The translations under genes were made by a program, and so were the position numbers. The notes beneath the pieces were generated by a model. That model worked only from the letters and a program-made list of their open reading frames with translations, made no database searches and had not been told where the DNA came from. A stretch of DNA of 64,000 nt from a virus. Below are positions 9,134 to 27,132 of the stretch, one piece after another; positions within the stretch are counted from its first letter, which is position 1; every line of letters begins with the position of its first letter. Location: positions 1-64,000 of IMG/VR virus record IMGVR_UViG_3300045977_000235. The stretch is one strand, 5' to 3'.

Positions 9134-9832
9134 TTATAGTCTTTTATAGGATGAATATATTGATTCAGATACTATTTCAGGTGAAGTAAAAATTGTATGC
9201 CATAATTGACACGTTTGACTTCGACAAATATCACTATCAGTAAATGTTACAATTGGTACAGGTAACTGTAATTGTCCTATCTTTCGTATCACAAAAGATA
9301 AACCATTTTCTACAAAAATATCGCTTTGTGAGAGATCACCTGTAATAACAACTTTACTTCCTTCACCTATGCGGGTAAGGATTAAATGAAGTTCTTCTTT
9401 TGTAAGATTTTGTGAATCATCTATAATAATAAATGAGTTCCGTAAAGTAGAACCACGTAAATACATTACAGGATACGTATATATAGTCCCGTTGTTTCTT
9501 CCATCATAATATTTTGCGCCTAATTTTTCTTCTAAGACTTCTAATATTGGTGTTGCCCAAGGCTCCATTTTTTCTTGAGCATCACCAGGAAGAAATCCTA
9601 TCGGCCTACTAGCAGGTACAGTAGGACGTATGATTGTTATGCGTTCTACTTCACCTTTGTAATAATATTCACATGCTAAAGATGATGGTATATATGTTTT
9701 CCCTGTACCTGGACTACCTATTGCTAATGTAACAACTGAAGAATGTATGGCTTTGATATATTCCTTTTGAGTTTGATTTAAAGCCCGAACAGATTCAAAT
9801 TTCGTATATCCACTACCATTGTTTTTCCCCAT
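9134..9832 (-). CDS. phoH: PhoH-family ATPase
   Basis: GSPGTGKTY Walker A, RP..IGFLPGD..EKMEPW, YLRGSTL, IIIDDSQN, LTRIGEGSKVVITGD..QSD. Start moved to ATG 9832 (AGGAAG RBS). Confidence 0.93.
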   Translation of the reverse strand: MGKNNGSGYTKFESVRALNQTQKEYIKAIHSSVVTLAIGSPGTGKTYIPSSLACEYYYKGEVERITIIRPTVPASRPIGFLPGDAQEKMEPWATPILEVLEEKLGAKYYDGRNNGTIYTYPVMYLRGSTLRNSFIIIDDSQNLTKEELHLILTRIGEGSKVVITGDLSQSDIFVENGLSFVIRKIGQLQLPVPIVTFTDSDICRSQTCQLWHTIFTSPEIVSESIYSSYKRL

Positions 9833-9857
9833 AGACTTCCTTATAAAACAAATTGCC

Positions 9858-10577
9858 TTACACAAATATTCCTTGTAATGATTCTTCTATATGATTAGAA
9901 GGATTACAATTTACACAAATAAACTTATCATCATTAAATAATTTAATCATTTCCTTTTCTGCAAATTCATTATTACATAATGAACATGTATATAATATTT
10001 TTTCTTTCTTATATTCAATACCAATACTTCCCCGATATTTTTTTAAATATATTGCCCAACATTCTTTACAAATATAATAATGATAATAATATCCTTTTCT
10101 ATTATCTTTCTGTCTGTAAAAATCATCTATATCTTTTATTTCAAAACACATATTACATTTTTTTTCACCAGTTTCAAATACAAACTTTTTTCTATATATT
10201 CGTGTCCTATAATGATAATCCATCATTATTTTTGTACGGCATATTTTACATTGACTTTCTTTTTTAAATGGTTCTATACGAGACGTAAAAAATTCATCTA
10301 TATATTTTTCTGTATTACATATTGTACATATTTTCATACCACTATTAATAGCTTTTCTTCGTTCTTGTATACCGTGTTTTCTTCGCCATTGTAAAAAATA
10401 ATCTGGATTATCTTTATTAAATTTTTTATAATATTTTAATAATCTTCCATCATCCTTTCGTCGATATTCATACATACATTGTTTACAATAATCATATATA
10501 CCTAAAGGACGTGATTTAGCTTTTGTATATTCTGTAAAAAATTTATATCGTAAACACATACCACAACGTTTTTTCAT
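9858..10577 (-). CDS. Multi-CxxC zinc-ribbon repeat protein (HNH-associated type, no clear nuclease motif)
   Basis: Four K-x-C-x2-C...F...C-x2-C units; very Lys/Tyr-rich. Confidence 0.6.
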   Translation of the reverse strand: MKKRCGMCLRYKFFTEYTKAKSRPLGIYDYCKQCMYEYRRKDDGRLLKYYKKFNKDNPDYFLQWRRKHGIQERRKAINSGMKICTICNTEKYIDEFFTSRIEPFKKESQCKICRTKIMMDYHYRTRIYRKKFVFETGEKKCNMCFEIKDIDDFYRQKDNRKGYYYHYYICKECWAIYLKKYRGSIGIEYKKEKILYTCSLCNNEFAEKEMIKLFNDDKFICVNCNPSNHIEESLQGIFV

Positions 10578-10589
10578 GACTTTTATTCT

Positions 10590-11249
10590 TTATTGTAAAC
10601 TATATAATGATGTTTGATCAAATTGTATATATGGAATACCACCAGTAAAAGAACTCATCTGAACACCTAATCCTTCTGCAATACCAGCAGTATGAGCTAA
10701 TCCAGTAGGATCTATATGTGTCAATCGAACAGCTAAATCAGAAAAATCTGTTGCTGCTCCTGAAGAAATAGCAAAATATACTCCACCTAAATTTGCTATA
10801 TCAACAATCCATTCAGCCATAAAAGCAAAAGTCGTTCCTAAAGTTACCCATGATGATGCTTCAAGAGTTGCAATTGATAAACCAGATCCTAAAGTTTGTC
10901 CTGTTAATCGCCATATTGTAAAATCACTTAGAATATACTGGTATCCTAAAAAATAACCATTCGGACTTCCTATACTCATATCATTAGCACTTTGCAAACA
11001 CACTATACCATACCTATTTGCATTAGCACCACCAGTAGCACTTGTATTAGTTCGTATAAGTGTACGCATTCTCCCTTGTTCAATACCTTTTGTCCGTCCA
11101 CTTGCAACAGTAACTACACCATTACCAGGATCTCCAGCAGAATTATTAAGTAATGCTTTTAATGAACTTGTTCCTATAATTGGATTAACAAGATCTAATG
11201 AAAAATTTATGCGAGCATTCGCAGTAAAAAATTGCCAATCTGAAAACAC
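10590..11249 (-). CDS. Tail-associated beta-rich protein, paralogue family (copy 6)
   Basis: MFSDW..PIIGTSSL..TKGIEQGRMRTL..EWIVDIANLGG..ATDFSDL..FDQTSLY. GTG start with GGAGGT RBS. Confidence 0.75.
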   Translation of the reverse strand: MFSDWQFFTANARINFSLDLVNPIIGTSSLKALLNNSAGDPGNGVVTVASGRTKGIEQGRMRTLIRTNTSATGGANANRYGIVCLQSANDMSIGSPNGYFLGYQYILSDFTIWRLTGQTLGSGLSIATLEASSWVTLGTTFAFMAEWIVDIANLGGVYFAISSGAATDFSDLAVRLTHIDPTGLAHTAGIAEGLGVQMSSFTGGIPYIQFDQTSLYSLQ

Positions 11250-11265
11250 ATTATACCTCCATTTT

Positions 11266-11790
11266 CTATCTTACACGCCTTGGTATATTTGCAAAACCAC
11301 CAGATCTAACATAACGTCTACTAGGAACAATCTTTTTTAAACTTAATCCTTCCCATTGACATTCAAAACTGACATTAAATAAATCAGTACGTGCATTGAG
11401 TATCACAAATTTATCATTACTATTTATTGGTGTTAATGCCGGATTTACTGTATTGACTACCCATATTGTCACTATCCATAATGGATCTAATACAGAAGTC
11501 CAAAATTCTTCTAATAATGCAATAACTGCTCTATCAATATTTGCTGTACTTAGTGTTAATCTTTTTAATTCTGAAGCACTATTATGTTCAACACTTCCTA
11601 ACTTAAATGGATATGGAGTAAATTCAATGCTATTAAATATTATCGGTTCATTATGATCTGTTACAGATCGTGATCCAAATATATCAGGATTTGTTGCAGT
11701 TCTAAATTGTAATAATAAACAATGAACCCAAGGTGTTGTTACGTGTAATTCATTTTTAAGTCTAATCAACTCCAAAGGCCATGTAATCAA
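11266..11790 (-). CDS. Minor tail / hub protein (lambda L N-terminal-like)
   Basis: DHNEPIIFNSIEFTPYPF, LTLSTANIDR, KIVPSRRY. Synteny between the Dit-like and K-like genes. Confidence 0.7.
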   Translation of the reverse strand: MITWPLELIRLKNELHVTTPWVHCLLLQFRTATNPDIFGSRSVTDHNEPIIFNSIEFTPYPFKLGSVEHNSASELKRLTLSTANIDRAVIALLEEFWTSVLDPLWIVTIWVVNTVNPALTPINSNDKFVILNARTDLFNVSFECQWEGLSLKKIVPSRRYVRSGGFANIPRRVR

Positions 11791-11817
11791 TTCTCTACCT
11801 CCTACCGATTAAATTAT

Positions 11818-12402
11818 TTAATAATATCGTTCAACTATTCTACATTTTAAATTATAATATCCTAAATTATCTATATCACGCCCGACAAGTTTTTCAGATC
11901 CTTCATATCCAACTTCATCTATAATGAGTCCCATATACGGAAAAAATATTCGTACTCCACCACCACTTATGTATTCTCCATTTCCTAACACACCAAGGAG
12001 TTCAAATGTTGTTCCATTGATATATTTTGCTCTATGTGTCCCATTTGCAGCAGTATTTCCTAACACACCAGTAATTGTAACTTTATCTAAATCTAATATA
12101 TTATGGTGAAATTCTGTTTCAACGGTTACTGGTTCTGTATTTGATACCATAACTATGTTCTGTGCAAATGGATACGTCCATTGAAATGATAAAACTGGAC
12201 CTCTTTGTGAACGTATAAAACGTTCTATAACATTCTTTTTATCGGCTGATAATCCCTTCCATTCTAATTCATATGCCCGTTTCGGTCGAATATGCCGTGG
12301 TCGAGTTTGATATAAATGTTTCTGATGGGTAGATTCTAACCACGGATCATGTATAGAAATAGGACTTACTTCTGATAATGGTATATTAGGAAATACAGGC
12401 AT
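11818..12402 (-). CDS. Distal tail protein (Dit / lambda M-like) with an inserted beta domain, copy 2
   Basis: R.YELEWKGLS..K..IERFI....G....FQWTYP; insertion ITGVLGNTAANGT. Paralogue of 15067-15669. Confidence 0.7.
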   Translation of the reverse strand: MPVFPNIPLSEVSPISIHDPWLESTHQKHLYQTRPRHIRPKRAYELEWKGLSADKKNVIERFIRSQRGPVLSFQWTYPFAQNIVMVSNTEPVTVETEFHHNILDLDKVTITGVLGNTAANGTHRAKYINGTTFELLGVLGNGEYISGGGVRIFFPYMGLIIDEVGYEGSEKLVGRDIDNLGYYNLKCRIVERYY

Positions 12403-12418
12403 AGCAATATATAACTCC

Positions 12419-13060
12419 TTATCCTAAATTATATAATTGAGTTTGATCAAATGAAACTATTGCATTAGTAGCTGTTAGATACCCACGTAAATAAACACCT
12501 TCATTATTACTTGATACTAATTTACCTTCAGATCCATCTGTTAATTGTGTTAATAATGCTAAATCAGAAAAATTAATCGCAGTTCCTTTTTTCAATGCAA
12601 AATAGATACCACCTATATTTGTAAGATCAACAATCCATTCAATTTGCATTCCGTAAACGGTATTTTGAGTAAGAGTTGTTGAAGCAGTAATTAAAGGAGT
12701 AGCACTAACATTACTTAATGTACTAAAATCTCCTCTTGTTAAACTATAAGAACCTGACATAAGAAATTCAAAACGATAAAATTGTCCATTGATTGTTCCT
12801 ATGTTATCTGCACTTCCCATACACACCAAACCAAATCCGTATCCATTTCCAGAAGAACTTTTTGGTTGTACAAGTGTACGTAGTCGTCCTTGTTCTAATC
12901 CTTTTGCTAATCCGCTCACATCTGTAGGAGTTAAATATCCTATTTGTGTTGAAGCTGTTGATGTTAAAGTTAATGAAGCAGCACCAACAATAGGAGAACT
13001 ACTGTCTATTGCAGCAGTCATAGTAGCTGATAAATTCTTATTCCATTGCGCGAAAGACAA
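12419..13060 (-). CDS. Tail-associated beta-rich protein, paralogue family (copy 5)
   Basis: MSFAQWNK..SPIVGAASL..GLAKGLEQGRLRTL..EWIVD..GG..KKGTAINFSDL..EGVYLRGY. TTG start. Confidence 0.78.
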   Translation of the reverse strand: MSFAQWNKNLSATMTAAIDSSSPIVGAASLTLTSTASTQIGYLTPTDVSGLAKGLEQGRLRTLVQPKSSSGNGYGFGLVCMGSADNIGTINGQFYRFEFLMSGSYSLTRGDFSTLSNVSATPLITASTTLTQNTVYGMQIEWIVDLTNIGGIYFALKKGTAINFSDLALLTQLTDGSEGKLVSSNNEGVYLRGYLTATNAIVSFDQTQLYNLG

Positions 13061-13071
13061 TGTATTTCTCC

Positions 13072-13719
13072 TTAAATCATTTCATATAATTGAGTGCTAT
13101 TAAAAAGCGTTCTTACTCCTGGTGACGCAGATCCATATGCCCGTAGATACAAACCTTCTGAACTACTCGTTGTTAAAATTCCAGCACCAGTATTTATCAT
13201 TTGTGTTACAACGGTCATATCAGAAAAATCAGTAGCTGTTCCTTTTCTCGTTACTAAATAAACTCCCCCTAAATTTGTAATATCTGCAATCCATTCCATT
13301 TCCATACTTCCAGCTACATTTAATGTAACAGTTTGCGTAGAAGAAGCTAAAGTAGTCCCTGGAATATCTGCACTTAAAGAACTTGTAGTTGCACGTGACA
13401 ATGTATATGCTGAATTAGAACGTAATTCATATCTATAAAAAGCACCACTATTATTTACTAAATCATCCAAACTTCCCATACACACTATACCAAATCCACA
13501 TGTATTACTTCCTCCTAATGTTAATTTAAATAACGTCCGTAATTTTCCTCTCTCTAAACCCTGTGCTAAACCACTTGCATCTAAAGGTGTTGTATACGTA
13601 GCTTGACCTATCCCATGTGCTTCTAAGCATAAAGAAGATGATGCTAAAATAGGAGAAAGATATTGTATGTATATTCCGCTATTTACCTGTAGATATTTAC
13701 CCCATTGAGAAAACGACAA
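13072..13719 (-). CDS. Tail-associated beta-rich protein, paralogue family (copy 4)
   Basis: MSFSQW..SPILASSSL..GLERGKLRTL..EWIADITNLGG..RKGTATDFSDM. TTG start. Confidence 0.78.
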   Translation of the reverse strand: MSFSQWGKYLQVNSGIYIQYLSPILASSSLCLEAHGIGQATYTTPLDASGLAQGLERGKLRTLFKLTLGGSNTCGFGIVCMGSLDDLVNNSGAFYRYELRSNSAYTLSRATTSSLSADIPGTTLASSTQTVTLNVAGSMEMEWIADITNLGGVYLVTRKGTATDFSDMTVVTQMINTGAGILTTSSSEGLYLRAYGSASPGVRTLFNSTQLYEMI

Positions 13720-13729
13720 TTGTATCTCC

Positions 13730-14377
13730 TTATGCTAATAAGAAAAGTTGTGTATTATCAAATGAAACTTTTGCTTCTGAAACTGAAGTATATCCGCGTA
13801 AATATATACCTTCACCAGCACTTGTTATGAGTTGTTGATAATTTGAATCTGTTAATTGACTTAATAATGCTAAGTCAGAAAAATTCGTAGCAGTTCCTTT
13901 TTTAAGAGATATATACACCCCACCTAAATTTACTTGATCAGCAACCCATTCCATTTCCATACTGTATATTGTATTTACAGTTAAAGTCGTTGCTGTACTA
14001 CTTATTAATACTGTACCAGGAGTACCAGTAGCTAATGTATTACCGTTTGCTCTGACAAGGCCATAAGATCCTGTACTAAAAAATTCAAAACGGTAAAAAT
14101 CACCATTTGATGTCCCTATGTTATCGGCGCTTCCCATACACACTAACCCAAATCCATACCCATTTGTCATTGTACTTCGTGGTCTTGTTAATGTTCGTAA
14201 TCGTCCTTGTTCAATACCTTTTGTTAAACCACTAACATTTGTAGGAGTTAAATATGCAACATCAGATCCACCAGTTGATGTTAAAGTTAATGAATATGCT
14301 CCAACAATAGGAGAAGTATTATCTATAAGAGCAGTCATTGTACCTGACAAATGTTTATTCCATTGAGAAAAAGACAA
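13730..14377 (-). CDS. Tail-associated beta-rich protein, paralogue family (copy 3)
   Basis: MSFSQWNK..SPIVGAYSL..TKGIEQGRLRTL..EWVADQVNLGG..KKGTATNFSDL. TTG start. Confidence 0.78.
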   Translation of the reverse strand: MSFSQWNKHLSGTMTALIDNTSPIVGAYSLTLTSTGGSDVAYLTPTNVSGLTKGIEQGRLRTLTRPRSTMTNGYGFGLVCMGSADNIGTSNGDFYRFEFFSTGSYGLVRANGNTLATGTPGTVLISSTATTLTVNTIYSMEMEWVADQVNLGGVYISLKKGTATNFSDLALLSQLTDSNYQQLITSAGEGIYLRGYTSVSEAKVSFDNTQLFLLA

Positions 14378-14388
14378 TGTATCTCTCC

Positions 14389-15039
14389 TTATACAAACTC
14401 ATATAATTGGGTAGTATCAAATAACACTCTTACAGCCCCTCCAGAGGTATATCCCCTCAAATAAATACCTTCAGAATTACTTGTTCCTAAAACTTGTGCT
14501 CCCATATCCAATACTTGTCCTAAAACAACCATATTAGAAAAATCTATAGCAGTTCCTTTTCGTATTACTAAAGATACTCCACCTAAATTTACTGGATCAG
14601 CTACCCATTCAATTTCTATACCATATGTTACATTTTGAGCAATACCTGTTGAACCAGAATTTAATGTTACATTAGGACTTCCTACATTTAATATATTAGT
14701 ATTTGATCGTGCTAAAGCATAGGTTCCATTTGAAAATAATTCATACCTATAAAAAGGACCAGCAGTCGTAACAATAGTCTCTGAAACTACCATAATAACA
14801 AGACCGAATCCACAACCATTACTTGTACTTGATTTTAAATTTACCAAAGTCCGTAATTTTCCTTTTTCTATTCCTTTTGTAAAGCCACTTGTATTAGAAG
14901 GTGTTAAATATAAAGCTGCACTAGCCGTGACAGAATTTAAAGCTACTGACGCTAGTCCACCAATAGGTGTAGCTAAATCTAAAGCTACGGAAGTATATAT
15001 ACTGTCTGATACATTTTTATTCCATTGAGCGAACGACAA
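14389..15039 (-). CDS. Tail-associated beta-rich protein, paralogue family (copy 2)
   Basis: MSFAQWNK..TPIGGLASV..TKGIEKGKLRTL..EWVADPVNLGG..RKGTAIDFSNM. TTG start with GGAGGT RBS. Confidence 0.78.
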   Translation of the reverse strand: MSFAQWNKNVSDSIYTSVALDLATPIGGLASVALNSVTASAALYLTPSNTSGFTKGIEKGKLRTLVNLKSSTSNGCGFGLVIMVVSETIVTTAGPFYRYELFSNGTYALARSNTNILNVGSPNVTLNSGSTGIAQNVTYGIEIEWVADPVNLGGVSLVIRKGTAIDFSNMVVLGQVLDMGAQVLGTSNSEGIYLRGYTSGGAVRVLFDTTQLYEFV

Positions 15040-15066: not shown

Positions 15067-15669
15067 CTATAGCAAATCATTTACCTTGAATATTTCTTGA
15101 AGTGTTACTGCTAAAGTATACACTCCTCTATCATCTATATCAGGGCCAAGTGTTTTACCAAAACCAGCAAAAAAATCTTCATCAGATGTTACACGGATAT
15201 TCGGAAGATACAATTTTGCTGTTCCTCCACCTGCATATGTTCCTGTACCACTTGATCCTACTAATTGAAATGAAGTAGCTGTGACATTTTGTATTGTAAA
15301 CGTTCCATTTGCTCCTGTGTTACCTGTTACACCTGCTACAATAACTGTATCACCTGTATACAAGTTATGTGTATATGCTGTTGTTATCGTAATAGGTGTT
15401 GTTTCTGGTGCATTGACTATTGTAAATCCATAAGGATACGTCCATTGTATAATAGATCCAGCCAAGTGTACATCTACAAGAAATTTAATAAATCTATTCT
15501 TTTGTGCGGCAGTTAAATACACATATTCAAGATCCCATTTTCTTAATCCTCTTGAATATTGTGATTCAGTATAGGTGTAACCACTATCGTATAATATTTC
15601 CTTAAAAACCTCTATCAGTTTAACAGGATTAATACGAGAAGGTAAAGGACTTCCAGGCCATGCAACCAT
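15067..15669 (-). CDS. Distal tail protein (Dit / lambda M-like) with an inserted beta domain, copy 1
   Basis: First gene after the tape measure. RKWDLEYVYLT..QK..FIKF....G..IQWTYP; insertion VAGVTGNTGANGTF. Confidence 0.72.
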   Translation of the reverse strand: MVAWPGSPLPSRINPVKLIEVFKEILYDSGYTYTESQYSRGLRKWDLEYVYLTAAQKNRFIKFLVDVHLAGSIIQWTYPYGFTIVNAPETTPITITTAYTHNLYTGDTVIVAGVTGNTGANGTFTIQNVTATSFQLVGSSGTGTYAGGGTAKLYLPNIRVTSDEDFFAGFGKTLGPDIDDRGVYTLAVTLQEIFKVNDLL

Positions 15670-20374: not shown

Positions 20375-20818
20375 TTATACTCCAGTAAATGTAGGTTCTC
20401 CAGTTACACGTAACCTAGATGTGAATGCAAGCTTATCTTCAACATCAGCAGTATGTGTTACTTCAACTGTTATTGCCTTAAATTCAAACTGTGTATTATC
20501 AGGATCAGGAAAAACTAACTGATAATTTCGTTGTGTGCCTTCATCAAATAACCATAACATACCTGTGTTTATCGTCATATCATGTGTTGCTGATGCAGGA
20601 ATGTAGTTTCCTTCAAGCGTAATTTCCATACTCTTTAAACCACGTACAAATTCTCGCCATGCATCAAGAGAATCGTGACTCGTTACATCTAATTCATCTG
20701 CTGTTAATGACGATGTAATAGAACTAATTTCAGCAACCGCTGTAAATGTTTCTGTCCCTGTTTGTCCATTACCAACTTTTAAAATTGTACCCCATGCGTG
20801 TAAACCTAAACTTGCCAT
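20375..20818 (-). CDS. Major tail tube protein
   Basis: GTILKVGNG..FTAVAEISSI..DELDVTSHDS..WREFVRGLK..ITLEGNY..F...LRVTGEPT. Confidence 0.9.
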   Translation of the reverse strand: MASLGLHAWGTILKVGNGQTGTETFTAVAEISSITSSLTADELDVTSHDSLDAWREFVRGLKSMEITLEGNYIPASATHDMTINTGMLWLFDEGTQRNYQLVFPDPDNTQFEFKAITVEVTHTADVEDKLAFTSRLRVTGEPTFTGV

Positions 20819-22219: not shown

Positions 22220-22855
22220 CTACACAAATTTACCATAAGACGTAATAATATATGAAATACTAATAGGCCAGCTTCCACCACCTACACTACTCCCACTTCC
22301 TGTCAAATCAAAATATGAAATTGAATAGTTCCCTAATGATTCACGTCTTACACCAGGATTTGAACGAGTTACACCTTCTCCTGGTACTCCCATTATTGCA
22401 ATCATATCTAAACATGCTTGCTCAAGATCTAATAATTCTGCATCATGAACACCTTCAAGGTATCCTCCAGTATACGTAACTGCAATGTTTCGTATCCCAC
22501 GTGAAAATACAGATTGTGGTAAATAGAGAAAACCAGGATCTAAAATCTTTAATTGACTTAAATCTGTAACAATAATGGTTTCTATTAACGTGTTTACATC
22601 ATCATAAATAAGAAGTTCATCAACATCTGTAACAGGATAATTACGTAAAGTTAAAAATTCAGGTTGTAATTCTACTCCATCATATTTTTCATTTGTATAA
22701 AGTCGGCTTTTAAGTTTTCTAGCTGTTAATGCTTCTAAACGTGCTGATGCAGCATTAATAGCCGCTTCTATTTGAGGCACTAATGTTCCTGGTGTTAAAT
22801 TAAATGCTTCTTCTACAGCAGCTACAGTTGTTAATGCCCAAGGTTGTAATGCCAT
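22220..22855 (-). CDS. Head-tail adaptor (gp6/gp15-like)
   Basis: LTTVAAV..INAAS..LE..T.R, LTLRNYPV, VTYTGGY, DLEQACL, RESLGNYSISY. Confidence 0.82.
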   Translation of the reverse strand: MALQPWALTTVAAVEEAFNLTPGTLVPQIEAAINAASARLEALTARKLKSRLYTNEKYDGVELQPEFLTLRNYPVTDVDELLIYDDVNTLIETIIVTDLSQLKILDPGFLYLPQSVFSRGIRNIAVTYTGGYLEGVHDAELLDLEQACLDMIAIMGVPGEGVTRSNPGVRRESLGNYSISYFDLTGSGSSVGGGSWPISISYIITSYGKFV

Positions 22856-22872
22856 ATACTTTCCTATAATAG

Positions 22873-23529
22873 CTAAAGTGATAACGATACTTCTAAATTA
22901 TCAAAAAGAACGGTTGCAGAAGTTACACCAATTTCACTACGAACAAAAAACATTTCATTTGTTGTTACAATATGCCCACTTGTATCAACAACAGATATAA
23001 TTGGCTCCAAATCTGTAAAATCTAATTCAAAACCCCTTTTAATCTTAATTTCTACACCAGATCCATTTACAGCCCATAATACTTCCATTGCATATGGTTT
23101 ATTAAAACCTGTTTCTCCTGCTACTACTGGACCACCTACTAATGTTCCTGTACTATATAATGTTTCGCCAGTTACTTTTCGTAAATAAATAAAATGACTT
23201 CCACCAGTATCAGGATTTAATCGTACACCAGTATAATAAAAATTATTTAATCCAGTAAGCATATTTTGAGCAGAACACATAAAGCATAAACCAGCACGTA
23301 AATATGTTGCAGAACCTGTACCAGTACCTGCTTTTATATTAACTAAAAATCTATATCGTGCAGACGTTAATCCGTGTGGTAAAGGAGTTGTGGGTATTGC
23401 AGTATGAACTTTATTTTCTGCAAATGTTTGAATTAAACAAGAACCTGTTCCAGCAATAACATCATCATATATGCCTGTTCTACATAATCCATCGCCAATA
23501 TTTGTAATCCATTGTTCTGTAAAAGTCAT
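22873..23529 (-). CDS. Divergent member of the tail beta-rich paralogue family (copy 1)
   Basis: MTFTEQW..VIAGTGSCL..HGLTSARYRFL..GLCFMCS..YAMEVLW..KRGFELDFTDL..VLFDN. Its ATG directly follows the upstream TAA in the same frame. Confidence 0.7.
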   Translation of the reverse strand: MTFTEQWITNIGDGLCRTGIYDDVIAGTGSCLIQTFAENKVHTAIPTTPLPHGLTSARYRFLVNIKAGTGTGSATYLRAGLCFMCSAQNMLTGLNNFYYTGVRLNPDTGGSHFIYLRKVTGETLYSTGTLVGGPVVAGETGFNKPYAMEVLWAVNGSGVEIKIKRGFELDFTDLEPIISVVDTSGHIVTTNEMFFVRSEIGVTSATVLFDNLEVSLSL

Positions 23530-24321
23530 TTAACTCTCCCATGTTTCTATATATTGGCTTGTTCCACTTGGGATAGTCATAGTATTGTTCCACGATTCAA
23601 TGTATGCAGAACTCCAACTTCCTTCATATTCCCATGTTTCTAAATATTGACTTGTACTTGTATATGTGGGAGGTTCCCATGTTTCAATATATCGACTTGT
23701 TTCAGTTGTTGTACCATAATCCCAACTATCAAAATATTCTAATGTCCATGTTTTATCTTGACCATAATCCCAATCATCAAAATATGCTAATATCCACGTT
23801 TTTCCTTGATCATAATCCCATGTATCAGTATATTGAAGAACAAATTCACCGAAATCAAAAGGTGCATAATTAAAATCTTCTGACCATAAAAGAACAAACA
23901 ATTCAGCTTCTGTTACAATACCTGAAACACGAAATCTTCCTGAAAAACGTATTGCATCTTCGACATCATTTACCCACGTATATTCAGGTAATAATGCAGT
24001 AAACGTTAAAGGATCTCCTTCACGAAATCGTATACGTAATATTGCAAAAGTTTTTGCATCAAATAAAAAACCTAATCCATAGGTTTCATCAAATCCATGT
24101 GAAGCATTATCTATAATTAAATTACCTTCTAATAGAACTTCGGCACTTTTTAAACCCCTTGCATATTCACGCCATGCGTCTAATGATTCATGATGGGTTA
24201 AATCTAATTCATCGGCAGAAAAATTCATTCCTATAACAGACAATTCAATTATAGGAATAAATTGTGTTCCATCATAAATTTCAAGAGTAGAACCATGTGC
24301 ATGAAACGCTTCACTTGGCAT
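23530..24321 (-). CDS. Tail-tube-protein paralogue with C-terminal Y-x-[DE]-x-W repeats
   Basis: The N-terminal ~140 aa align with 20375-20818 (ADELDLTHHESLDAWREYARGLKS vs ADELDVTSHDSLDAWREFVRGLKS). Tail repeats: YTDTWD, YFDDWD, YFDSWD, YIETWE, YLETWE, YIESWN, YIETWE. Confidence 0.82.
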   Translation of the reverse strand: MPSEAFHAHGSTLEIYDGTQFIPIIELSVIGMNFSADELDLTHHESLDAWREYARGLKSAEVLLEGNLIIDNASHGFDETYGLGFLFDAKTFAILRIRFREGDPLTFTALLPEYTWVNDVEDAIRFSGRFRVSGIVTEAELFVLLWSEDFNYAPFDFGEFVLQYTDTWDYDQGKTWILAYFDDWDYGQDKTWTLEYFDSWDYGTTTETSRYIETWEPPTYTSTSQYLETWEYEGSWSSAYIESWNNTMTIPSGTSQYIETWES

Positions 24322-25043: not shown

Positions 25044-25532
25044 CTAAGAGTTTTCTAATAATTTATGTTTTATGACAATCTTTTTACACAATTCAAAAAA
25101 TTCTTCTTGGGTAAGAACACTTTTTGCTCTATTACACGTCCAGCAACACGGTATAACATTTTCTTTAATGTATCCTTTATCTGGATCTACTCTATCAAGT
25201 CCTACTCTATCTGTTGGTCCCGTACCTGGAGAATCCCCACAATAAAAACATGGTAAAAAGATTAAATTATTTAATTCGTCTTGTGTGAGACTAAATTCTA
25301 ATTCACGTTTTTTAGCAGAGTTTACATATTCTGCATATGTAAATTGTAGAAAGTTTTCTTCTTTATACTTCTGGCGTTTTTCTCTATCGACAATCAATCG
25401 TGCTTCTCTACATGAAACACATTCAGGATGGAAAAGACTGATACGTTTAATATACGTATCAAAATATTCTTCTGAAAGAGGATAGTCATTCATACAAGTT
25501 TTACATTGTTGAACTTCTAAAGCATCTATCAT
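25044..25532 (-). CDS. HNH-type (His-Me finger) endonuclease
   Basis: CFYCG..GLDRVDPDKGYIKENVIPCCWTCNRAK plus an N-terminal CxxC..CxxC; GAGGT RBS. Confidence 0.82.
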   Translation of the reverse strand: MIDALEVQQCKTCMNDYPLSEEYFDTYIKRISLFHPECVSCREARLIVDREKRQKYKEENFLQFTYAEYVNSAKKRELEFSLTQDELNNLIFLPCFYCGDSPGTGPTDRVGLDRVDPDKGYIKENVIPCCWTCNRAKSVLTQEEFFELCKKIVIKHKLLENS

Positions 25533-25686: not shown

Positions 25687-27132
25687 TTATGGAACTACTG
25701 CAATTCCCATAGCAGCAACTGGTTGAGTTGTCATATCATGTAAACTATTAAAGTCCAAACGTGATTTTGCAATCAATGCTACTTGATCAGTAAGAGGAAG
25801 TGGCATTTCAATCACTTGAACAGTTCGTACAGTACCATAAACCATAGCAGTATGATTTACAATATTTACAGTGCTCGTAGTATTTGGACCTGCTACAGTA
25901 TTAAATCCAGTAGCAGCTACATCATTACGTACAAACTCAGAAACAATTACAGGAATACCATCAAACATTCCAAGTTGTCCGGTTTTTACAACAGCATCAT
26001 TACCGAAGCGATCTACGGTAGTAACATCTGCTAATTGCAAAAAAGACTTTAAGTACACAGCAGGGCTACAAATCATAGCTAATTGATCTGGATTCACGCC
26101 ATATTTACCCATTTTAGCGCGTAAATTACGTAAACCTGCTTGATCAAAAGTTGCTAAAGAAATAGTCGTATCTACGGCTGGTTTAATAGCCATAACACGA
26201 TAGCCGTCCCATGCAGTACGTGGATCTGTTGCAGGAGTACCTGTAGCAACATCGTTGTCCTCATGAGTAGCGGTTGTACTACCGTTAATAGTAGCAGTTT
26301 CGATAGCATTAGCTAAAGACATAACAAGTTCATCACGGGCAAAAGGAAGAATAGCCACAATAGAATCTTCTTCTTCCTCAGTAGAGAAAATGGTAAGAGC
26401 ACCAATACCTACTGCCACAAATTGCACATTACGGGTTCCTGGTGTCATTGCAGGAATCATATTTGCCTGAGTCATAACGTTATCTGTATTACGTTCTGCA
26501 ACCTTAAAACCCATTGGTAATGCAGCAACACGAACAGGTAAAGTATATGGGCTACGTGGCATAGTGATGTTACGATGCAATGCAGCAACACGCAAAGCAA
26601 GAGCAATACGATCTTGCAATTCTGCACTAAATTCAGATGGAATAAATTCCAAACCAGTACCAGCACCAGTTGTACTTAATGCACGTTGCAAAATTTGAGT
26701 TTCACGTTGAAATTGTTCAAAATACTTCAAGCTACGTGCTACTTGATCAAAAGTAACATTCGCCATAAGTTGACGATTTTGAACCATTGTTTTATACTTA
26801 TAGTATGTCAACATATATAGATAATCTGAACGTTCTTGAAGTCCACGTAAACAATAATCATCTTTATGTGGGCGAGTTTTATGAATTAAATCATTAAAAT
26901 CCACACGACCATAATTTCTGATTAAATGAGATACTTCAGGAGTATCAGCATCAATATTTGTTTCACCTTTGCGAGACATAGCTGCTTGAACATCAGTCAA
27001 TTTGGTTGTTAAATCGTGTACAGCACGTTCTACAACTTCTTGACGTTCAGACAAAGAAGTGGTAGATGTTTCTAAAGCTAATTTTGCATCAGCTACAGTC
27101 TTAGATAAAAGAGCAATCGCATTTTGATCCAT
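25687..27132 (-). CDS. Major capsid protein (HK97 fold with delta-domain-like N-terminus)
   Basis: RALSTTGAGTG.EFIPSEFS, LANAIETATING, GQLGMFDGIPVIVSEFV; coiled-coil N-terminus. Confidence 0.93.
   Translation of the reverse strand: MDQNAIALLSKTVADAKLALETSTTSLSERQEVVERAVHDLTTKLTDVQAAMSRKGETNIDADTPEVSHLIRNYGRVDFNDLIHKTRPHKDDYCLRGLQERSDYLYMLTYYKYKTMVQNRQLMANVTFDQVARSLKYFEQFQRETQILQRALSTTGAGTGLEFIPSEFSAELQDRIALALRVAALHRNITMPRSPYTLPVRVAALPMGFKVAERNTDNVMTQANMIPAMTPGTRNVQFVAVGIGALTIFSTEEEEDSIVAILPFARDELVMSLANAIETATINGSTTATHEDNDVATGTPATDPRTAWDGYRVMAIKPAVDTTISLATFDQAGLRNLRAKMGKYGVNPDQLAMICSPAVYLKSFLQLADVTTVDRFGNDAVVKTGQLGMFDGIPVIVSEFVRNDVAATGFNTVAGPNTTSTVNIVNHTAMVYGTVRTVQVIEMPLPLTDQVALIAKSRLDFNSLHDMTTQPVAAMGIAVVP

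Follow-up and report, generated by a model that had tools for sequence, protein, structure and literature searches.

We analyzed a 64,000-nucleotide stretch of viral DNA (positions 1 to 64,000 of the 103,465-base IMG/VR record IMGVR_UViG_3300045977_000235, hereafter the window), focusing on two adjacent, co-oriented minus-strand genes at 22873–24321, i.e., P0001 (23530–24321; 263 amino acids) and P0002 (22873–23529; 218 amino acids). Our preferred reading, to which we assign a probability of about 40%, is that these genes encode a "decorated tail-tube" unit split in two parts: a stalk-bearing ring protein (P0001) and a free lectin (P0002). Specifically, P0001 would retain the ability to form hexameric tube rings, either as a specialised ring or interspersed among ordinary rings, with its repeat-rich C-terminal tail pointing outward as a stalk, while P0002 would sit at the stalk end, held non-covalently by the conserved last motif of P0001 at the point where this motif is covalently joined to the lectin domain in fused relatives. 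Such a unit would give the tail additional glycan binding of low affinity and high avidity, comparable to that provided by C-terminal immunoglobulin (Ig) and carbohydrate-binding module (CBM) extensions in other siphophages. The remaining repeats may act as a spacer only, bind sugars themselves or hold further paralogues of P0002. An earlier description of this stretch from its letters alone (the original prediction) listed 22873–24321 under a single tail-tube protein; these coordinates cover two genes, and the sequence observation itself is confirmed.

A tail tube paralogue ending in a new repeat

P0001 arose by duplication of the tail tube gene of this phage and has since diverged, in line with the duplication originally proposed: residues 1–134 are 41% identical (E 9e-31) to the undecorated 147-amino-acid tail tube protein encoded at 20375–20818 on the minus strand, which is the parent copy. 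This parent matches PF06199 (E 3.1e-10), PF16461 (E 4.2e-9) and phrog_158 (major tail protein). The alignment to the tail tube protein, together with an AlphaFold2 (AF2) model, delimits the tube-forming domain to residues 1–138 of P0001 (23908–24321, minus strand). In the AF2 model, obtained from a nine-sequence alignment, this domain displays the beta-sandwich and helix layout of tail-tube and Hcp proteins with predicted local distance difference test (pLDDT) values of 55–76, and the best matches among solved structures are likewise tail tubes and Hcp proteins: monocin MttP ranks first (Z 8.8, root-mean-square deviation (rmsd) 4.0, 120 aligned residues), with the tubes of 80alpha, GTA, lambda gpV, YSD1 and SPP1 at Z 7–8.2 (all from VIA-align). 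These Z values are moderate because the model confidence is middling. Structural neighbours of P0001 in the Atlas are tail tube proteins with PF06199 or PF16461, several of which carry a C-terminal CBM_X2, BACON or SbsC_C domain, and one P0001 homologue, P0007, has a precomputed PF06199 match.

The tube domain is followed by a segment kept in all homologues (residues 139–163; 23833–23907, minus strand), which consists of a hydrophobic helix (E-L-F-V-L-L-W, placed by the model at residues 139–147) and a degenerate first motif (W-S-E-D-F-N-Y). Seven clear Y-x-[DE]-x-W repeats then occupy residues 164–263 (23533–23832, minus strand), three of the type Y-[FT]-D-x-W-D-Y...K-T-W and four of the type Y-[IL]-E-[ST]-W, and the protein ends in Y-I-E-T-W-E-S. 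The count of seven clear repeats plus a degenerate WSEDFN, given in the original prediction, was reproduced with the regular expression [YWF].[DE].[WF], which yields eight matches in P0001 (residues 146, 164, 180, 196, 211, 226, 240 and 257) at spacings of 18, 16, 16, 15, 15, 14 and 17 residues. When the C-terminal 124 amino acids were shuffled with their composition preserved, the mean was 0.83 motifs and none of 20,000 shuffles reached 8, while any other reading frame of the window contained at most 2. Residues 140–263 carry a net charge of −21 and are 25% aromatic, including 11 tryptophans. At the DNA level, a 48-bp tandem repeat (23713–23834; 2.5 copies, 81% matching; Tandem Repeats Finder) underlies the D-W-D-Y type repeats, and is recent. 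Searches of the tail against Pfam (E ≤ 10) and PDB sequences (E ≤ 10) returned no meaningful match to a known repeat or domain, i.e., this is a repeat without a known relative, and a search using the tail alone returned only P0001-family proteins.

The P0001 family comprises eight clusters of 201–263 amino acids, all of which include the tube domain, the hydrophobic helix, the degenerate first motif and 3–7 further motifs, for a motif number of 4–8 across homologues. The C-terminus follows the pattern Y-x-E-x-W-E-[SG] in all eight homologues, down to 48% identity. Searches for relatives identified three loci in IMG/VR, one of them with a full tail module, a single weak tail-tube match in phage GenBank records, just two ordinary distant tail tube proteins in metagenome contigs, and none in GTDB genomes, a degenerate N-terminus pattern yielding 7 chance matches and 0 family members. 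Comparing the window to two relatives, we observed 88–90% identity for the tail tube protein, 79–85% for the P0001 tube domain, 77–79% for P0002, and 58% for the P0001 repeat tail, in which the motif was nevertheless kept. Since the repeat tail and P0002 diverge faster than the tail tube protein, both behave as exposed parts.

A lectin-like neighbour linked to the repeats

P0002 is predicted to be a complete lectin- or CBM-type jelly-roll, a fold that does not by itself establish a function. The AF2 model, based on a 122-sequence alignment (A3), is a 14-strand jelly-roll with a pLDDT of 92 and a predicted template modelling score (pTM) of 0.89, and its residues 1–218 superpose on CBM66 of Bacillus subtilis SacC (Z 19.0, rmsd 2.3 Å, 161 aligned residues), followed by legume lectins, ERGIC-53 and VIP36 (Z 15–16). 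Foldseek also matched P0002 to many concanavalin A (ConA)-like superfamily entries at probability 1.00, in line with the concanavalin/LamG-type jelly-roll originally proposed for P0002 and its paralogues. The superposition on CBM66 and on the legume-lectin/ERGIC-53 ConA-like domains covers the whole length of P0002 but comes with no detectable sequence relationship (17% identity in the structural alignment), and compares folds, not ligand-binding residues; the P0002 family further differs from CBM66 and lectins by an invariant N-terminus of its own, M-A-[FL]-[SA]-D-W. Near-invariant residues in the 122-sequence alignment are, in P0002 numbering, W7, S30, G53, G57, R60, G80, Y98, W152, G158, G166, D182, E192-G193, D210 and T212. 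Top Foldseek matches of P0002 also include the PL7, PL14 and PL36 alginate lyases, and the lectin family may conceivably have a lyase activity instead of mere binding.

Several lines of evidence connect this domain to the repeats of P0001. First, in each of the four loci for which genomic context is available (the window, L001, L002 and L003), the gene directly after the P0001 orthologue is a P0002 orthologue, and no terminator-like site was found between P0001 and P0002. Given this tight adjacency in every locus seen, the two genes are probably translationally coupled. The junction in the window reads TGG GAG AGT TAA ATG, so that, as originally noted, the P0001 stop codon (TAA, 23530–23532) is immediately followed, in frame, by the ATG of a paralogue-family member, here P0002. 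The last three P0001 codons (TGG GAG AGT, encoding W-E-S; 23533–23541, minus strand) also contain the GGGAG Shine-Dalgarno sequence of P0002. Because the codons used differ between relatives (GAG AGT vs GAA TCA), the C-terminal motif is conserved at the protein level and not forced by this overlapping ribosome site.

The in-frame TAA-ATG, which is shared by the window, L002 and L003, would also be expected if P0001 and P0002 were partly produced as one tube-repeats-lectin polypeptide through read-through of the stop codon, similar to the decorated tail tube proteins made by frameshifting. Architectures in which motif and domain are fused do exist elsewhere, as described below. However, L001 has a TAG stop and then 11 nt of spacer that include a separate GAGGA ribosome site, so that its two genes are out of frame, and in the window a GGGAG ribosome site stands at the right distance before the P0002 ATG. 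TAA is, in addition, the least leaky bacterial stop codon. A search for fused long forms of at least 432 amino acids found none, which is weak evidence. We therefore consider read-through, raised as an alternative in the original prediction, highly improbable, and the in-frame TAA-ATG of the three loci looks more like a relic of a fused ancestor.

Second, motif and domain co-occur within single proteins. Among 150 lectin-family representatives, only two (P0047 and P0133) have an N-terminal extension of at least 40 residues, and both extensions contain the motif, with 3 matches over 89 residues where the remaining family members would predict 0.019 (P about 1e-6). In P0133, the motif tryptophan is located 9 residues before the domain tryptophan, i.e., at the same distance as across the P0001-stop-P0002 junction. 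The P0047 extension resembles the helix and first motif of P0001, and ranked first of 150 when searched with a profile of the P0001 tail, although at a weak E of 0.064. P0047 (267 amino acids) is encoded on a 318-kb JGI contig and P0133 (254 amino acids) on a 38-kb contig, and IMG/VR scans with both proteins gave no matches. The N-terminal residues of P0133 (...L-D-V-T-G-D-P...) are reminiscent of the final strand of the tail tube protein (...L-R-V-T-G-E-P...). Judging from these sequence features, P0047 and P0133 may be remnants of tube-lectin fusions, or of frameshifted ones.

Taken together, the adjacency of the two genes, the kept C-terminus and the presence of the motif in cis in two distant family members support, from sequence comparisons, the view that the repeats are linked to the lectin domain. 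In the simplest reading, "motif(s) then lectin domain" would represent one unit that can be encoded either fused or split, and in this lineage the split would lie right after the last motif and right before the domain's first residue. The association of the repeats with the paralogue domain, made in the original prediction, is supported, but the mechanism put forward there, in which each repeat is a donor strand completing an incomplete fold, is not supported, because P0002 is predicted to be complete alone, with no core strand lacking, and aligns end to end with whole lectins. Separately, we considered the repeats as mimics of the conserved N-terminus of the paralogues, and rejected this candidate: a 9-residue position-specific scoring matrix (PSSM) derived from 127 N-termini gave no positive score in P0001 (best −0.2 bits).

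Lectin paralogues and the number of repeats

Six copies of the lectin-like family are encoded in the window, and none elsewhere in the 103,465-base record. Besides P0002, four are arranged in tandem in the tail-tip module (14389–15039, 13730–14377, 13072–13719 and 12419–13060, all minus strand), and a sixth is found after the gpL-like gene (10590–11249, minus strand). The five paralogues are 22–30% identical to P0002, and the tandem ones are recovered by profile at E 1e-95 to 1e-101; none of the Pfam, PHROG or PDB profiles matched, and the paralogues have no family name from these sources. A profile search of 1.84 billion representatives yielded 397 clusters, nearly all of them stand-alone proteins of 205–245 amino acids matching from residue 1, with a strikingly conserved N-terminus (M-A-[FL]-[SA]-D-W-[DET]-[FVI]-[FY]). 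The pattern M-x-F-x(1-2)-[QD]-W, originally attributed to all six copies in the window, applies to five, the copy at 10590–11249 as called beginning with M-F-S-D-W. Five of the six copies start with TTG or GTG. These starts of the five paralogues (10590–15039) are confirmed by the family-wide conserved N-terminus, and automatic gene calls truncate 13730–14377, which the ESM Atlas holds from residue 14 only.

P0001 was originally proposed to be a miniature scaffoldin, whose Y-x-[DE]-x-W repeats would each dock one of the six jelly-rolls via an added or donated beta-strand, so that a tail ring would display a cellulosome-like string of interchangeable adhesins. The concept is shared with the cellulosome scaffoldin (cohesin-dockerin) and with the branched receptor-binding-protein assemblies of phages such as CBA120 and G7C, i.e., one scaffold with interchangeable binding modules, except that the putative sites in P0001 are 7-residue peptides, and no Pfam match to a cohesin, dockerin or T4 gp10-like docking domain was found in P0001, its tail or the paralogues. 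Motif and paralogue numbers do change in parallel, from 8/6 in the window to 6/4 in G001 (locus L003; IMG/VR record 3300045955_000166), the only two genomes with full context. Two features of the window are lineage-specific, namely its pair of additional motifs (Y-[IL]-E-[ST]-W type) and its pair of additional tandem paralogues, one a divergent copy and the other a tandem-array duplicate. A repeat number of 4–8 among homologues is also what would be expected of a modular scaffold, and motif and domain are found in cis in P0047 and P0133. Against this, the count comparison is limited to n=2 and selection for more avidity, acting in parallel, would produce it equally well, P0002 is predicted to be complete with no missing strand, the N-terminus of the paralogues is unlike the repeats by PSSM, and the lectin family is widespread without P0001-like proteins. 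Moreover, the genes of five paralogues lie at a distance of about 9–14 kb, following the gpM-like and gpL-like genes of the tail-tip module, and a period of 14–18 residues leaves at most about 55 Å between sites for domains of ~215 residues that would be about 40–45 Å across (our own geometric estimate). We thus regard strand-mediated docking of all six jelly-rolls as quite improbable. A looser arrangement is likewise unlikely, in which short W/acidic motifs on the tube ring, similar in kind to those found in cis in some family members, form a peptide array that captures one interchangeable lectin module each in trans (P0002, and perhaps the tail-tip paralogues), with the number of heads changed by gain or loss of the 48-bp repeats.

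The split decorated tail-tube unit has difficulties of its own. Neither AF2 (pLDDT about 30 in the tail) nor ESMFold folds the repeat tail confidently, and with such low-confidence predictions a stalk, a disordered motif array and a folded beta-meander are not distinguishable. Used alone, P0001 has no Pfam match at E ≤ 0.1 and reaches no tail-tube model, and ring formation is assumed. The evidence from fusions consists of two proteins, P0047 and P0133. The lectin family, at 397 clusters that are nearly all stand-alone, is far larger than the eight-cluster P0001 family, hence its domain has no general need of a P0001-like partner. Finally, with five of the six family copies encoded in the tail-tip module near gpM-like and gpL-like genes, gene order suggests that these are mounted at the tip, not on P0001. 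A complex prediction between P0002 (same 122-sequence alignment) and P0001 residues 205–263, i.e., the last four repeats, gave an ipSAE of 0.00 in both runs, without controls, and we used it neither way.

The repeat tail could instead be the decoration itself, displayed on the tube either as a beta-meander that folds on its own and has an aromatic face, or as an array that binds sugars multivalently, with P0002 an independent lectin located elsewhere on the virion, e.g., at the neck or at the adaptor encoded next to it. Tryptophan or tyrosine combined with aspartate or glutamate is typical of sugar-binding surfaces. The D-W-D-Y repeats look in sequence like amphipathic strands of 13 residues (K-T-W-T-L-E-Y-F-D-S-W-D-Y) with short G-Q-D turns between them, and both the fast divergence and the variable copy number of the tail fit an adhesin. 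In addition, C-terminal adhesin domains are common on tail tube proteins (PMC6669499), including Atlas neighbours of P0001. Yet no confident fold is predicted for the tail, it is similar to no Pfam or PDB repeat, and this reading would not account for the cis fusions in P0047 and P0133, nor for the fact that the C-terminal end and the adjacency of P0002 are invariant. We consider a self-contained tail possible but doubtful.

Alternatively, the C-terminal arms may run along the exterior of the tube, each motif docking on a successive ordinary tail-tube ring, so as to staple the first few rings beside the P0001 ring. The rise of siphophage tube rings is roughly 40 Å, which an extended period of 14–18 residues would span (our own estimate), and sheath and tube proteins are known to exchange arms through beta-strand addition. 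However, relatives with the same tape-measure length (1277–1282 amino acids) have either 6 or 8 motifs, the tail tube protein, with a net charge of −12, is acidic like the repeat tail that would bind it, and neither P0002 nor the cis fusions would be accounted for. Stapling thus seems very unlikely.

Genomic setting and known parallels

The structural genes are all on the minus strand, and we describe them in the order in which the module is read, starting with terminase and portal genes, which are named from size and position only. A protease gene (phrog_80) lies upstream of the major capsid gene (25687–27132), and an endonuclease VII/HNH-like gene and two small genes of no assigned family separate the latter from P0001. 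P0002 is followed by the head-tail adaptor gene (22220–22855; phrog_442) and three connector-type genes, then by the ordinary tail tube gene, chaperone-like genes, the gene for a 1277-amino-acid tape measure protein, and a lambda-like tip module with gpM-, gpL- and gpJ-like genes. P0001 can be considered out of place because its gene sits between the capsid and head-tail adaptor genes, a position already highlighted in the original prediction.

Within the tip module, two gpM-like proteins (15067–15669, 200 amino acids, and 11818–12402, 194 amino acids; both minus strand) are 32% identical to each other (E 9e-37), and each carries an inserted E1_FCCH-like beta-barrel (PF16190, E 3.4e-8 and 3.6e-4). 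Lectin paralogues are located downstream of both: four after the first gpM-like gene, and one after the second gpM-like gene and a gpL-like gene. With P0001/P0002 included, the pattern "ring protein, then lectin gene(s)" is observed three times in this phage. The relative G001 is without two of the window's four tandem lectin paralogues, and contains two open reading frames (ORFs) beyond those of the window, one among the connector genes (4857–5366 of L003, 169 amino acids) and one just before the tape measure gene (7248–8051 of L003, 267 amino acids).

The structural module of the window also includes two endonuclease VII/HNH-like genes (25044–25532 and 9858–10577, both minus strand; phrog_1035, E 3e-24 and 1.1e-14), one after the capsid gene and the other in the tail-tip module, both of which are probably mobile insertions. 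Amid the tail-tip genes, a 243-amino-acid ORF (9134–9865, minus strand) with a P-loop (G-S-P-G-T-G-K-T) is flanked by the HNH-like gene and a 174-amino-acid ORF that precedes the gpJ-like gene, an unusual site for an ATPase.

By analogy, the closest known parallels to P0001 and P0002 are TpeX of the 936 phages and the p140/p132 pair of T5. TpeX, from lactococcal 936-group phages, is a tail-tube extension with a CBM that binds host cells specifically, and both TpeX and SPP1 gp17.1* are made by programmed frameshift of a single tail-tube gene (PMC6669499). The likeness would lie in a subpopulation of tube subunits with an outward extension that ends in, or is associated with, a CBM that adds host binding by avidity. 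Lambda gpV, with its Ig domain, is another decorated tail tube protein. Whereas TpeX and gp17.1* rely on frameshifting and a covalent CBM, the tail tube gene at 20375–20818 is a plain 147-amino-acid ORF, and the decorated form is encoded by a separate paralogous gene 2.7 kb upstream, between the capsid and adaptor genes. P0001/P0002 also differ by the new W/acidic 16-residue repeat used as a linker, and by a lectin encoded as a separate ORF: a stop codon separates the two genes in all four loci, and in L001 they are out of frame.

In T5, p140 forms a ring of tail-tube paralogues whose C-terminus contacts and holds the p132 collar, which carries the side fibres, and T4 gp54 forms another tail-tube paralogue ring that anchors accessory proteins (PMC10038345). 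Like p140, P0001 is a duplicate of the tail tube protein. However, p140 bears no decoration, has its gene in the baseplate module and shares just 9% identity with its parent, whereas P0001 is 41% identical to its parent, has a long, 124-residue repeat tail, and has its gene ahead of the connector genes, between those for the capsid and the adaptor. Given the lack of a frameshift, a separate and oddly placed gene, a new repeat as linker and a separate lectin protein, P0001/P0002 belong neither to the decorated tail tubes nor to the p140 type.

Phages are known to adsorb better with decorated tail tubes and accessory carbohydrate-binding modules, which are usually made by frameshift or as domains attached covalently. 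In this phage, a separate tail-tube paralogue seems to have taken over the decoration, which would then have been divided between two proteins. If the repeats serve only as a stalk or as an adhesin, this would be an ordinary, though unusual-looking, tail decoration. If instead the last motif does hold the lectin, it would represent a peptide tag of very small size by which lectin modules can be attached to a virion, and would explain a conserved feature of a large and wholly uncharacterised family of phage lectin-like proteins (397 clusters).

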